64,000 nucleotides of DNA from Candidatus Daviesbacteria bacterium (GCA_028687915.1 JAQTZF010000001.1:1966-65965), one strand, 5' to 3'; counted from the stretch's first letter, positions 33,176-37,336 are shown. Notes: generated by a model not told the origin, from the sequence alone. Numbers and translations are program-made.

Positions 33176-33902
33176 CACGATTACAGTTATAAATATATTC
33201 TTTGACTTGGAATAAGCGAAGCTTGCGAGCTTTGCTCTTAAAGAACGTTAAAAATTTTCTCAGAAAATTTAGGGTACACCTTTCGCAAAGCGAAAGGCAA
33301 GCTATGCTTACTTCCCGTCAAAGTGGCTTTGGGCGTCTTTGCCACCAAAGACGCAAAATAAATAGATGAAAATAAGAGAAAAAATTTTGTACTCAAACTT
33401 ATAGGATTAGTTAGGTAGAATTGGATATTTTACACTTCAATCCTGTGGCTAACGCCCGGGACCTAGGTGCTTTGCACTCTGGAATGTGAATACGATATTA
33501 GTCAAAGGCTTTGAGCCAAAAAAACTCAACGATGACCATTAGTACTCTTAAGCTAAACACCTTACGATGCTTACACTGAGAGCCTATCAACCCGGTAGTC
33601 TTCCGGGGGTCTTAAAGATTCCTAATCTCAGGATCTGCTTCGTGCTTAGATGCTTTCAGCACTTATCAGGAAAGAACGTAGCTACCCGGCGCTGCCATTT
33701 TATGACAACCGGCACACTAGAGGTTCCCTCGTCTCGGTCCTCTCGTACTAGAGACAACTTCCCTCAAGAATCAAAACGCCCATACTGGATAGAGTCCAAC
33801 CTGTCTCGCGACGGTTTGAACCCAGCTCGCGTACCACTTTAACTGGCGAACAGCCAGACCCTTGGGACCTTCTACAGCCCCAGGATGTGATGAGCCGACA
33901 TC

Positions 33903-34213
33903 GCTGTCATTATTTGTCTACAATTACTTGTAGGATCAGACTATACCTTCACCCTGCTTTGCAGGGGCTAGCCTTTTATCCAAGTTTCAAAACCTTGAAT
34001 CCGATCTTTCGATCAAGTCGTTACGGGGTACGTTCATGTAAACTACGTTCGTGTAAACCAAACCGTAATAAACTGAATGTACTTCCCTCGGTGTTGTCCA
34101 TCATTACTGATTAGGAGTTCACCGATTTTAGCTAGTATTTTTTCAAAAAGACTTTTTATATTAAGTTCTAACAGAGCTACAGAATTACTCCTGCCGCACC
34201 CCAATGTATTAAG
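33903..34213 (-). other. Putative ORF-less group I intron in the 23S gene at the L2500-equivalent site
   Basis: A 311-nt AT-rich insert separates ...GGCACCU from CGAUGUCGGCUC. Removing it restores the E. coli PTC sequence GGCACCUCGAUGUCGG exactly. The 5' exon ends in U and the insert ends in G, as in group I introns. No ORF longer than 75 aa. Confidence 0.5.
34029..34058. repeat. Two tandem copies of the 15-nt unit TACGTTCRTGTAAAC (inside the L2500 intron)
   Basis: TACGTTCATGTAAAC followed by TACGTTCGTGTAAAC. Confidence 0.7.
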
Positions 34214-34842
34214 GTGCCGAACGATACCGTCCTTGTGGACTGTTGGGTATCACTAGCCTGTTATCCCCGGGGTAGCTTTTATCCGATAAGCCTACTCCCT
34301 CCCACGAGGAAAGTAGGGATCACTAAAGCCTGCTTTCGCACCTGCTCGACTTGTAGGTCTTGCAGTCAAGCACACTGTATACTTTTGCGCTTAAATCTCC
34401 GTTGCCATTGGAGATAAGTGTACCTTTGCACTCCTCCGTTACTTTTTTGGAGGAAACCGCCCCAGTTAAACTGCCCGCCAGACCTTGTTACGGTGCCGGA
34501 TTACGGCTACCGCTAGAGATTTAAAAATCTAAAAAAGAGGTGTTTCATTGTCGCCGAAGCTCCCTCCTACTCTACATAAATAAATTTTCAAATCAGGGCC
34601 AAGCTACAGTAAAGCTCCACGGGGTCTTTTTGTCCAAGTATGGGAAGGCCGCATCTTCACAGCCACTGCAATTTCGCCGAGTCTATCCTCAAGACAGTTC
34701 CTAAGTCGTTCTACCTTTCGTGCGGGTCTGAACTCCATTTTAAAACTGTCATTCTAAATAAATTTAGAAATCTTACATTTGTTTTTATGATTTAATGATT
34801 TTTAAATCCTCTACGTCGCCATAGAGATCGGACTATATCTTG

Positions 34843-34865
34843 TACGTTCATGTAAACTGAACGTA
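34843..34865. repeat. Hairpin repeat TACGTTCA-TGTAAAC-TGAACGTA (in the domain-IV intron)
   Basis: 8-bp perfect inverted repeat with a 7-nt loop. Confidence 0.7.
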
Positions 34866-34947
34866 CTCCAACGTGTAGTCTCTGAGGGTTTTTTGATATA
34901 AATATCAAAATCTTCCCTGCTGATTGACTCCACTAACAGATTGTCAC

Positions 34948-34970
34948 TACGTTTATGTAAACTAAACGTA
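34948..34970. repeat. Hairpin repeat variant TACGTTTA-TGTAAAC-TAAACGTA (in the domain-IV intron)
   Basis: A C>T change in the 5' arm is matched by G>A in the 3' arm, a compensatory pair. Confidence 0.7.
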
Positions 34971-37336
34971 GTACTGTTAGATACTGAGTTATTCCAGCAT
35001 ATAGTTGGATTTTCACTACTTAAGGTTTTTTGCATACTAATCTAGCAATTTTCAACGAATTCCCGAGTGTTGTACATTGCTGTACATTCTAGCAAGTTTG
35101 TTACCGCACCTACCAGACAAGGAATTTCGCTACCATAGAACAGTTATAGTTACTGCTGCCGTTCACCAGATCTTAGACCCCTTCCTCATCCAGTCTTACG
35201 ACTGGAGTCAAGAGAAGTTTTAAATTACTGGCACTGGGCAGGTGTCAGCCCCTATACATCAGCTTTCGCTTTAGCAGGGACCTGTGTTTTTGCTAAACAG
35301 TCGCTCAGGATCATTAACTGCGTCCCACATTGCTGCGGGAAGGACATCTTGCAAACTTACGTCCAGCTTTTGTTGCCGAGTTCCTTAAGGATAGTTCTCT
35401 CGATCGCCTGTGTATACTCAACTCGCCCACCTGTGTCGGTTTGTGGTACGGCTTGATACTGCTCCCTTTACGAAACTTTTCCTGAAAACAGAACATCACT
35501 TTCTTACGTATTCGTAACTCGAATATGCACTCCGACAAGTCTTGCGACTAATCGGAATGTTCCGACTTGCGTCGGACTGAGAGCGGATTTACCAACCCTC
35601 ACTTCCTTGTCACTTAAACCCCCATATAGAGGGCAAAGTTATTCCCATTTTGTCCTTCCGTAAAGTATTCACGAACAGCACATATACCCGAATTTTGACG
35701 GGTAATCCATCGACTACGCCATTTGGCCTCGTCTAAGGTACCGATTAACCCTATTCTGATTAACATTGAATAGGAAACCTTGGGCATTCGGCGTTAATGT
35801 TTTTCACATTAATTTCGCTACTCATACCGGCATTCTCACTTCTATACGCTCCACCCCGCCTCACGACGAAGCTTCATTGCCTATAAAACGCTCCCCTACC
35901 ACGTCACAATCATGTAACTGATTGTGACATCCGTAGCTTCGGTAGAACTTTTAGCCCCGGTTCGTTGTCGGCGCGAAATCCCGTAGTAGACCAGCGAGCT
36001 GTTACGCTTTCTTTAAAGGATGGCTGCTTCTAAGCCAACCTCCTGGCTGTCTAAGGAATTTCACATCCTTTAACACTTAAAGTTCATTTAGGGACCTTAG
36101 CTGTCGGTCTGGGTTGTTTCCCTCAGGACCGCTCCGCTTAGCCGGATCGGACTGACTCCTGCTACACACGTTAGTATTCGGAGTTTGATTGGATTGACAG
36201 TCTTGCGACCATCAGATCCATCCAGTGCTCTACCCCTAACGTGATTCCACAGGGCTATACCTCAATATATTTCGGGGAGAACCAGCTATCTCCGAGTTCG
36301 ATAGGCATATCACCTCTAACCACACCTCATCCTAGACTATTGATACAGTCACAAGTTCGGGCCTTCCCCGCCTTTTACAGCAGGTTCGCCCTGGACATGG
36401 TTAGCTCACTCGGTTTCGGGTCTGCCATATTCTCCTAAATCGCCCAGTTAGGGCTCGCTTTCACTGCGCCTACAAACATTCCTGTTCTTAGACTTGGAGA
36501 ATAAGACAACTCACCGGTTCATTCTTCAAAAGGCACACGGTTGTCCTAATAAATTAAGACTTCCGCAGCTTGACAACATACGGTTTCAGGTACTATTTCA
36601 CTGAGCGTTTCGCTCTTCTTTTCACCTTTCCCTCACGGTACTAGTTCACTATCGGTCTGAAAGTATATTTAGCCTTAACAAGTGGTCTTGCTAGCTTCAC
36701 CCAGGATTACACGTGTCCTAGGTTACTCAGGAATCCGACCACGGCAGTCCAGATTTCGCTTACAGGGCTATCACCCTCTTTGGCATTCCTTTCCAGGAAT
36801 TTCAGCTATCCGTTCTACTCGCTACTGTCGGTCCTACAACCCCACGGGTTTCAAGTATTGCTACCTGAAGTGATCTGTGGTTTGGGCTTTTCCCTTTTCG
36901 CTCGCCACTACTGGGGGAATAAACTATTGTTCTCTTTTCCTGCGCTTACTTAGATGTTTCAGTTCAGCGCGTACCCCTTCCAACACTATTAATTTATGTT
37001 GGAATAATTGCCGATTAAGACAATTGGATTATTCCATTCGGAAACCTCTGGATCATAGCTTCTTAGCAGCTTCCCAGAGACTATCGCGGCTTAGTGCGTC
37101 CTTCATCGGTACTTTCAACCAAGGCATCCACCGTATGCATTATTGTTGAGTATCTTTTGGCTTGTAAATTCTCCGATAAATCGGAGAAAAATTTGGCCTT
37201 CTTCCCAAATTACAAATAAATTTGTAATTGTTTAAATCGTATTCACATTTCAAAGTGCAAAATCCAGATTATCTGGAACTCAGAAAACCGGAAATTCCGA
37301 TGTTCTGAGCCTCAGATTATCCAACCATCCCCTTGG

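Follow-up and report, generated by a model that had tools for sequence, protein, structure and literature searches.

What are the two inserts that interrupt the 23S ribosomal RNA (rRNA) gene of a Candidatus Daviesbacteria bacterium, and what becomes of them when the rRNA is made? The gene lies on the minus strand of a 64,000-nucleotide stretch of DNA (GCA_028687915.1 JAQTZF010000001.1:1966-65965), hereafter called the window, from whose first letter all positions are counted. A preliminary description, made from the sequence alone, had noticed one insert in domain IV and one in the peptidyl-transferase loop, had pointed to a hairpin repeated in both, and had considered either degenerate or minimal self-splicing introns or elements that leave the mature 23S rRNA in fragments. 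The analysis presented here indicates that both inserts are, very probably, genuine group I introns which lack an open reading frame (ORF) and are spliced from the 23S precursor by the ordinary group I mechanism. Named after the E. coli position that they follow, the two introns (L1951 and L2500) and the exons they separate are arranged as follows.

34736-35111, minus strand: L1951 group I intron, 376 nt, no ORF, terminal G at 34736.
33904-34211, minus strand: L2500 group I intron, 308 nt, no ORF, with P7.1/P7.2 (IA-like), terminal G at 33904.
33520-37153, minus strand: 23S rRNA gene including both introns (Rfam LSU_rRNA_bacteria, 2265 bits, model positions 1-2925).
35112-37153, minus strand: 23S exon 1, 2042 nt, last base U1951 (window 35112), placed by E. 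coli alignment and intronless relatives.
34212-34735, minus strand: 23S exon 2, 524 nt, E. coli 1952-2500, last base U2500 (window 34212).
33520-33903, minus strand: 23S exon 3, 384 nt, beginning CGAUGUCGGCUC, E. coli 2501 onward.

The gene thus measures 3634 nt unspliced and 2950 nt spliced. Its boundaries were taken from an alignment to the annotated 23S rRNA of E. coli (L002, 944-3847; numbering checked at U1939, C1962, U2500 and A2503), which reveals an insert of 376 nt after 1951/1952, in the loop of helix 71 in domain IV, and one of 308 nt after 2500, in domain V, one base from the peptidyl-transferase ring. The junction at 2500 is unambiguous, reading (with a slash for each splice site) ...UUCGGCACCU/UAAUACAUUGGGGUGC at the 5′ end and AAUGACAG/CGAUGUCGGCUC at the 3′ end, while the junction in domain IV can be drawn in three ways because short repeats lie at its borders. 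One genome per GTDB species was scanned for the 3′ exon word CAGACCCGCACGAAAGG; intronless relatives, mostly Candidatus Daviesbacteria or other Microgenomates with some obviously mislabelled bins among them, read CTTGTCTGGT/GAGTTCAGAC, precisely the sequence that ligation at the corrected boundaries would give, and the L1951 intron is therefore placed at 34736-35111. A junction after GGUAGGU, the U1955 equivalent favored in the preliminary description, would lengthen the helix 71 loop of the ligated rRNA; a splice after A1952 would recreate the E. coli-like GGUAAGUUC. Both were rejected, since the U.G pair of P1 (see below) falls at U1951 and the intronless relatives have GGU/GAGUUC; for the latter placement it also counts that G1952 is the normal base of this lineage.

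Excision at the corrected sites restores uninterrupted exons, CUGGU/GAGUUC as in many intronless Daviesbacteria and related genomes, and GGCACCU/CGAUGUCGG as in E. coli; the expected spliced junctions are UCCUUGUCUGGU/GAGUUCAGACCC at 1951 and CGUUCGGCACCU/CGAUGUCGGCUC at 2500 (GCACCU/CGAUGU). Of what had been described before, the site after U2500 stands, but the alignment shortens that insert from 33903-34213 (311 nt) to the 308 nt given above; likewise the assignment of the other insert to the L1951 region, then a bracketed guess, was right, whereas its range (34723-35107, 385 nt) was off by 4 nt at the 5′ end and by 13 nt at the 3′ end. That the upstream exon ends in U and the insert in G is true of both with the new boundaries (3′ ends ...AAAAUG for L1951 and ...UGACAG for L2500), and both are AT-rich indeed, with a GC content of 33% (L1951) and 39% (L2500) against 47.5% in the exons.

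The identity of the inserts is evident from the Rfam group I model (Intron_gpI, RF00028), for which the preliminary description had proposed a search: it matches at 34809-35064 with 68.9 bits (E = 1e-16) and at 33917-34196 with 57.0 bits (E = 5e-13). Both matches exceed the gathering score of 50 and span model positions 1-253 of 253, and their E-values exclude chance. The lack of a group I core had been named as one part of a refutation; a core was found in both inserts, together with a P1 containing the U.G pair, a P10 and a terminal G. For the L1951 intron the segments on which the fold depends are these.

35088-35097, minus strand: internal guide ACUUGCUAGA, whose GCUAGA pairs with exon UCUGGU (P1, U1951.G).
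34831-34841, minus strand: J8/7 and 3′ strand of P7, AAGAUAUAGUC, a conserved segment of the catalytic core (Rfam alignment); the 5′ strand of P7 lies at 34876-34880.
34736-34808, minus strand: 3′ tail after P9, 73 nt, AT-rich with small hairpins, ending in the terminal G; outside the Rfam match.

P1 of this intron comprises 10 bp, formed by the exon bases UCUGGU plus the first four bases of the intron with ACUUGCUAGA, and the sole U.G pair in it with the U on the exon side falls at U1951. AACUU, starting at 35098 and thus one base 5′ of the guide range, pairs with GAGUU of the 3′ exon as P10. Thereafter follow P2 (with a GCAA loop), P2.1, P3, P4, a three-part P5, P6, P7, P8, P9 (with a GCGA loop) and the tail. 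Pairing was counted in MAFFT alignments, with slid partners and 500 shuffles as controls. The alignment for L1951 (A1) contains four sequences, that of the window and those of L039 (Microgenomates), L068 (Daviesbacteria) and L029 (Patescibacteria); in it 97.9% of the cells are paired versus at most 44% with slid partners, and there are 15 compensatory pairs (in P2, P2.1, P3, P5, P5a, P6 and P9), a number matched by none of the 500 shuffles. P1 is 100% and P10 95% paired, and U1951.G is present in all four homologs. P7 (GACUA with UAGUC), beside AAGAUAUAGUC, is paired and invariant in the four and gives no covariation signal. The tail of L039 is longer by about 31 nt (58 columns of the alignment, with gaps in the other three sequences).

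The L2500 intron follows a similar plan, with two segments of particular interest.

34196-34207, minus strand: P10 strand and internal guide; ACAUUG pairs with 3′ exon CGAUGU, and GGGUGC with exon GCACCU (U2500.G).
33978-34016, minus strand: hairpins P7.1 (GAAA loop) and P7.2, between P7 and the 3′ strand of P3, from folds of the segment.

After P1 its helices are P2 (GUAA), P3, P4, P5/P5a (GUAA), P6, P7, P7.1 (GAAA), P7.2, P8 and P9 (GUAA). The scan of GTDB yielded 13 public genomes with an insert at position 2500, and the helix plan (P2, P5, P6, P7.1, P7.2, P8 and P9) folds in all 13 homologs despite turnover of the sequence; the P7.1 and P7.2 hairpins fold in nearly all of them, L043 having a single composite hairpin instead. 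As two hairpins between P7 and the 3′ strand of P3 are a signature of the IA type, the L2500 intron may be called IA-like on its predicted fold. Eight ORF-less homologs make up the alignment A2, in which 92.6% of the cells are paired versus at most 41% with slid partners; 16 compensatory pairs (in P2, P3, P5 and P9) compare with 7.8 ± 1.7 in the shuffles, none of the 500 reaching 16, and these counts leave aside P7, P7.1/P7.2 and P8, which are uncounted or poorly aligned by MAFFT. U2500.G is found in eight of eight; P10 is 95.7% paired, including one U-to-C change that keeps the pair. P7 (GACU with AGUC) and GAAGGUAUAGUC are present and invariant, and do not produce a covariation signal.

Both sites lie in functionally central rRNA, and the inserts must therefore be removed precisely. 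By the proposed route each intron would fold into its P3-P9 catalytic core within the primary transcript, and the last six exon bases would form P1 with the internal guide (UCUGGU with GCUAGA; GCACCU with GGGUGC), placing the U.G wobble where cleavage is to occur. P7 would bind a free guanosine, which would attack after the U of that pair, while P10 would align the 3′ exon (GAGUU with AACUU; CGAUGU with ACAUUG); the terminal G of the intron would then move into the G site and the freed 5′ exon attack the 3′ splice site. The predicted product is a continuous 23S rRNA of 2950 nt, its junctions identical to those of intronless genes.

Neither intron has coding capacity worth the name. The largest ORFs overlapping them encode 74 residues in sense (34811-35035) and 75 in antisense (33887-34114), without a Pfam match at E ≤ 0.1, and tblastn with the LAGLIDADG proteins of relatives found nothing significant in the introns (one match of 7 residues, E = 5.8) or in the whole 64-kb window. 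That no homing endonuclease is encoded and that the largest ORF has 74 residues, as had been stated, is thus borne out but for the 75 residues in antisense; remnants of an endonuclease gene in the L1951 tail or in P6 of L2500 were considered and dismissed, neither Pfam nor tblastn giving any. Lacking such a gene, the introns of the window cannot move alone.

Among the relatives the situation varies. Five long homologs of the L2500 intron (840-853 nt; L026, L043, L062, L072 and L098) encode a LAGLIDADG_2 protein of 194-206 residues inside P6 (E = 1e-42), and a homolog of the L1951 intron in another Daviesbacteria genome (L003, 725 nt) a LAGLIDADG_1 protein of 171 residues (E = 6e-22). As the same two introns carry LAGLIDADG genes in relatives, the copies in the window represent the ORF-less stage of the homing cycle. 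The nearest genome found (L039), with 98.7% identity over the 524-nt exon 2 and 94-98% over the 23S exons, has both introns, and its L1951 intron is nearly unchanged except for swapped helix tips and the one insertion in the 3′ tail. Both introns are missing from L049, L106 and L007, which come next in similarity (89-91% identical), and more distant Daviesbacteria contain one intron or the other, with or without an endonuclease gene. Such a patchy distribution would be the pattern expected of a cycle of gain and loss by homing.

Two observations on the relatives concern the insertion sites. The L2500 introns of L026, L043, L062, L072 and L098 end in ...UUAUGUA or ...UAGUAACUA directly before CGAUGUCGG; hence these five introns bearing LAGLIDADG_2 genes appear to have no terminal G where the 3′ splice site is expected, unless their true boundaries lie elsewhere. 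Further, L026, L033, L040, L071 and L080 contain another insert in domain IV which ends a few bases upstream of U1951 (...AAYAWWATTGTG/TCTGGTGAGTTC) and occupies a different site.

Introns of this sort have company. Group I introns in 23S rRNA genes of the Candidate Phyla Radiation (CPR, Patescibacteria) were reportedly noted by Brown and colleagues in 2015. A survey of 348 CPR 23S genes found insertions in 82% of them; 433 of the 968 insertions were group I introns by Rfam, 222 without and 211 with an ORF, LAGLIDADG_1 genes occurred at positions 1917, 1931, 1952, 2593, 2604 and 2657, and rRNA insertions of CPR were reported to be removed from the transcripts (Tsurumaki et al. 2024, PMC11270868). 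The introns of the window share with these the lineage, the gene, detection by RF00028, clustering in domains IV-V near the peptidyl-transferase center and the same split into ORF-less and LAGLIDADG-encoding members, the reported site “1952” matches L1951, and nothing essential is different (PMC11270868); a search of that study did not find position 2500 among its numbered sites. Outside the CPR, the Coxiella burnetii intron Cbu.L1951 (720 nt, with a LAGLIDADG endonuclease of 157 residues; PMC1995217) shares E. coli position 1951 with the intron of the window, from which it differs in length and in carrying an ORF. The 725-nt Daviesbacteria intron with its 171-residue protein (L003) is its closer counterpart. 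The Coxiella intron is assigned to subgroup IA3, while the L1951 intron of the window is without P7.1/P7.2. It is the L2500 intron that resembles subgroup IA, as known from phage Twort and cyanobacterial L2593 (PMC1995217), in its two hairpins between P7 and the 3′ strand of P3, its short P2 and its short P5; it differs from these in its site (2500, not 2593), in having no ORF, and in the nested hairpin module on P6. The pair therefore adds to a kind that is well documented and catalogued by the hundred in CPR rRNA genes. Its value lies in the exact junctions (U1951/G and U2500/C), which give the true 2950-nt 23S rRNA for annotation, phylogeny and modelling of the ribosome, and in the paired ORF-less and LAGLIDADG-bearing versions within Daviesbacteria, which form a clean data set on the gain-and-loss cycle of homing.

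Several points weigh against reading the inserts as ordinary group I introns. Both are AT-rich, and given 33-39% GC a chaperone or cofactor may aid their folding in vivo; P5b and P8 of the L1951 intron and P6 of the L2500 intron are replaced by an unrelated hairpin module; the L1951 family consists of just four sequences, two of them nearly identical, and the 73-nt tail falls outside the Rfam model; P7 of the L2500 family is only about 71% paired in the MAFFT alignment, where it is visibly misaligned, so that this helix rests on the Rfam alignment and on invariance, not on covariation; and the number of 23S copies is that seen across the 64-kb window only. The low GC content and the exchange of peripheral helices for a foreign hairpin also speak for group I introns which are genuine but whose splicing in vivo depends on a protein, be it a chaperone of the host or a maturase-like endonuclease whose gene lies elsewhere; related introns do encode LAGLIDADG proteins, and some members of that family double as maturases. 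However, the cores are complete, with GNRA tetraloops, which normally make tertiary contacts of RNA only, on P2, P5a, P7.1 and P9; tblastn found no LAGLIDADG homolog in the 64-kb window; and the group I introns of CPR 23S genes lack an ORF as often as they have one (222 versus 211). Dependence on a protein is therefore considered unlikely. Both introns are probably self-splicing, judging from their sequence and fold, and we infer that in the organism of the window they would indeed be spliced, and without the help of a protein. Of the expression “degenerate or minimal self-splicing introns”, then, the group I part holds, whereas cores that are complete and peripheral helices with GNRA tetraloops make them neither degenerate nor minimal.

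Intervening sequences which RNase III excises and whose flanks are not rejoined, so that the 23S rRNA is left in fragments as in Salmonella or Leptospira, are known in bacterial 23S genes and probably occur at other sites in CPR (23IS2 and 23IS4, PMC11270868); like the inserts of the window they are ORF-less and AT-rich. Such elements, however, reside in helix 9, 25 or 45 and are flanked by a long stem, whereas the inserts combine group I cores, P1, P10 and a terminal G with sites in the helix 71 loop and the peptidyl-transferase ring; the covariation backs the group I fold, and no long inverted repeat surrounds either insert, the sole such stem enclosing the whole gene. It is chiefly the missing bracketing stem which led to rejection of fragmentation of the 23S rRNA, an outcome the preliminary description had left open and which now appears extremely improbable, none of the features of such elements being present. 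Just as little can be said for decaying, inactive relics in a non-functional or redundant 23S copy, to which the missing endonuclease gene and the several replaced helices might point, and which we judge most improbable: the exons score 2265 bits over the whole rRNA model and show no decay, the neighborhood of the gene is normal, comprising tRNA-Ala, 5S and a processing stem, both introns have conserved cores which covary with those in relatives, L039 has the L2500 intron as well as an L1951 intron almost unchanged beyond helix tips and one tail insertion, and CPR genomes usually have a single rRNA copy.

The processing stem just mentioned is the following.

33471-33496, strand unspecified: one arm of the pre-23S processing stem, 26 nt, 92% complementary to the other arm at 37236-37261 (inverted repeat I1).

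It brackets the entire 23S gene as is usual for pre-23S processing, and the 16S gene has a separate bracketing stem of its own (I4). The rRNA genes (32053-44516) are unlinked: 16S (43046-44516, Rfam) is followed by tRNA-Ile and tRNA-Cys on the opposite strand, about 4.5 kb of protein genes (PGK, GAPDH and others), tRNA-Ala and 23S, and 5S (32053-32169, Rfam) lies 1.35 kb beyond 23S with an opposite-strand ORF of 306 residues (32255-33175) in between. Besides the introns, the 23S gene has small insertions relative to E. coli, for example near E. coli positions 290, 1420, 1484 and 1510, and is missing the E. coli segments ~1678-1696, 2132-2158 and 2779-2796, all positions being approximate as they derive from a pairwise MAFFT alignment. 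The 3′ end of tRNA-Cys, ATTCTCGCCCGCACCTCCGA (42443-42462), recurs with 95% identity 76 nt downstream at 42519-42538 (direct repeat D12), which resembles the short direct repeat of a tRNA integration site.

There remains the hairpin common to both introns, the sole part of the locus that is potentially new. It consists of 21 nt, ACGUUCA-GUUUACA-UGAACGU, carried on peripheral helices; the earlier observation that both inserts share it is confirmed, with four copies in the two introns where 0 to 0.03 would be expected by chance.

34947-34971, minus strand: tip of L1951 P5b, module copy CUACGUUUA-GUUUACA-UAAACGUAG (a compensated variant); L039 has CUCGUAAGAG instead.
34842-34866, minus strand: L1951 P8, module copy GUACGUUCA-GUUUACA-UGAACGUAC; L039 has CCCGAGCAAUCGGG instead.
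34028-34082, minus strand: extension of L2500 P6 with two nested module copies; GUUUA flanks the inner copy on both sides (D1).

At P5b and P8 of the L1951 intron L039 has ordinary short hairpins, the rest of the intron being almost identical, and P6 of the L2500 intron is a hairpin of 6-7 bp or the site of the LAGLIDADG gene in relatives. Because L039 and other Daviesbacteria carry other hairpins or a gene at these helices, the module appears to have been swapped in recently. The nested copies in P6 resemble the outcome of an insertion that duplicated a short target, or of a slippage duplication of the 15-nt GUUUACAYGAACGUA. Looser forms accompany the 16S gene: the stem UACGUUCA with UGAACGUA occurs in a variable-region hairpin near the 5′ end of 16S (44332-44351, loop GUCAAA), and again in a hairpin of the 16S leader (44742-44761) whose loop GUUACA equals the canonical one minus a U, a shortening met also in the metagenome loci L126 and L180. 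Outside the rRNA operons no copy of the hairpin was found in the 64-kb window.

A scan of metagenome contigs for the exact 21-mer ACGTTYAGTTTACAYRAACGT (loci L114-L233) found it in at least 120 contigs, where a rough estimate of the chance expectation is a handful, at a density of about one per 50-60 kb by rough count, and nearly invariant over many different genomes. Among the matches listed, copies are situated inside an RNase P RNA (L125), a glmS ribozyme (L164), a cobalamin riboswitch (L199) and four group I introns according to Rfam, others abut tRNA 3′ ends by ARAGORN and one is in a spacer between 16S and 23S, no ORF of 100 residues or more spans 98 of the 123 copies, and the sense orientation in structured RNAs is almost always GUUUACA. 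Where variants occur, the stem is kept by compensatory change and the loop conforms to G-U-U-N-N-C-A. A phage element was dismissed, as only one of 2.9 million viral contigs contains the 21-mer. In L183 and L189 the hairpin makes up nearly the entire spacer between tRNA-Ile(GAU) and tRNA-Val(UAC), with ARAGORN gaps of 0 and 1 nt, which suggests that it can act as a tRNA-tRNA spacer or processing element; a linker of a circularly permuted tRNA was discarded for these two loci, as ARAGORN predicts an ordinary tRNA-Ile and an ordinary tRNA-Val flanking the hairpin.

Rfam has no family for the hairpin, the best being a sub-threshold chance match to UPD-PKib (20.7 bits versus a gathering score of 39), and its sequence was not found in the literature searched, PMC11270868 and a 2026 paper on tRNA introns making no mention of it. 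Comparable hairpin-forming repeats are the GC clusters of yeast mitochondria and the repetitive extragenic palindromic (REP) elements of bacteria. The repetitive hairpin-forming elements of sponge mitochondria (PMC2800124) are, like the module, short, palindromic, dispersed and mostly non-coding, are tolerated at helix tips of RNA genes, vary in presence among close relatives and insert into one another; the module differs from such organelle repeats in being a near-invariant 21-mer of low copy number, strongly concentrated in structured RNAs and of one preferred orientation. Invariance, concentration in structured RNAs and orientation bias together fit a function at the RNA level better than a purely selfish DNA repeat.

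Tentatively, and with somewhat more doubt than conviction, we propose that the hairpin is a previously undescribed module grafted onto helix tips of unrelated structured RNAs of CPR, being either a protein tag or a mobile hairpin. Its hosts could comprise group I introns, RNase P RNA, glmS, cobalamin riboswitches, leaders and spacers of rRNA and trailers of tRNA, and the introns of the window could be recent recipients, with three helices swapped relative to relatives and one copy nested. The module could serve as the binding tag of an RNA-binding or processing protein specific to the lineage, or it could be a small mobile hairpin that persists only where RNA structure tolerates it; either fits the evidence. 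If the proposal is true, it would reveal in these uncultured genomes a shared factor for RNA handling, or a new kind of selfish element compatible with RNA structure, in a lineage for which gene losses are otherwise the only guide to RNA biology.

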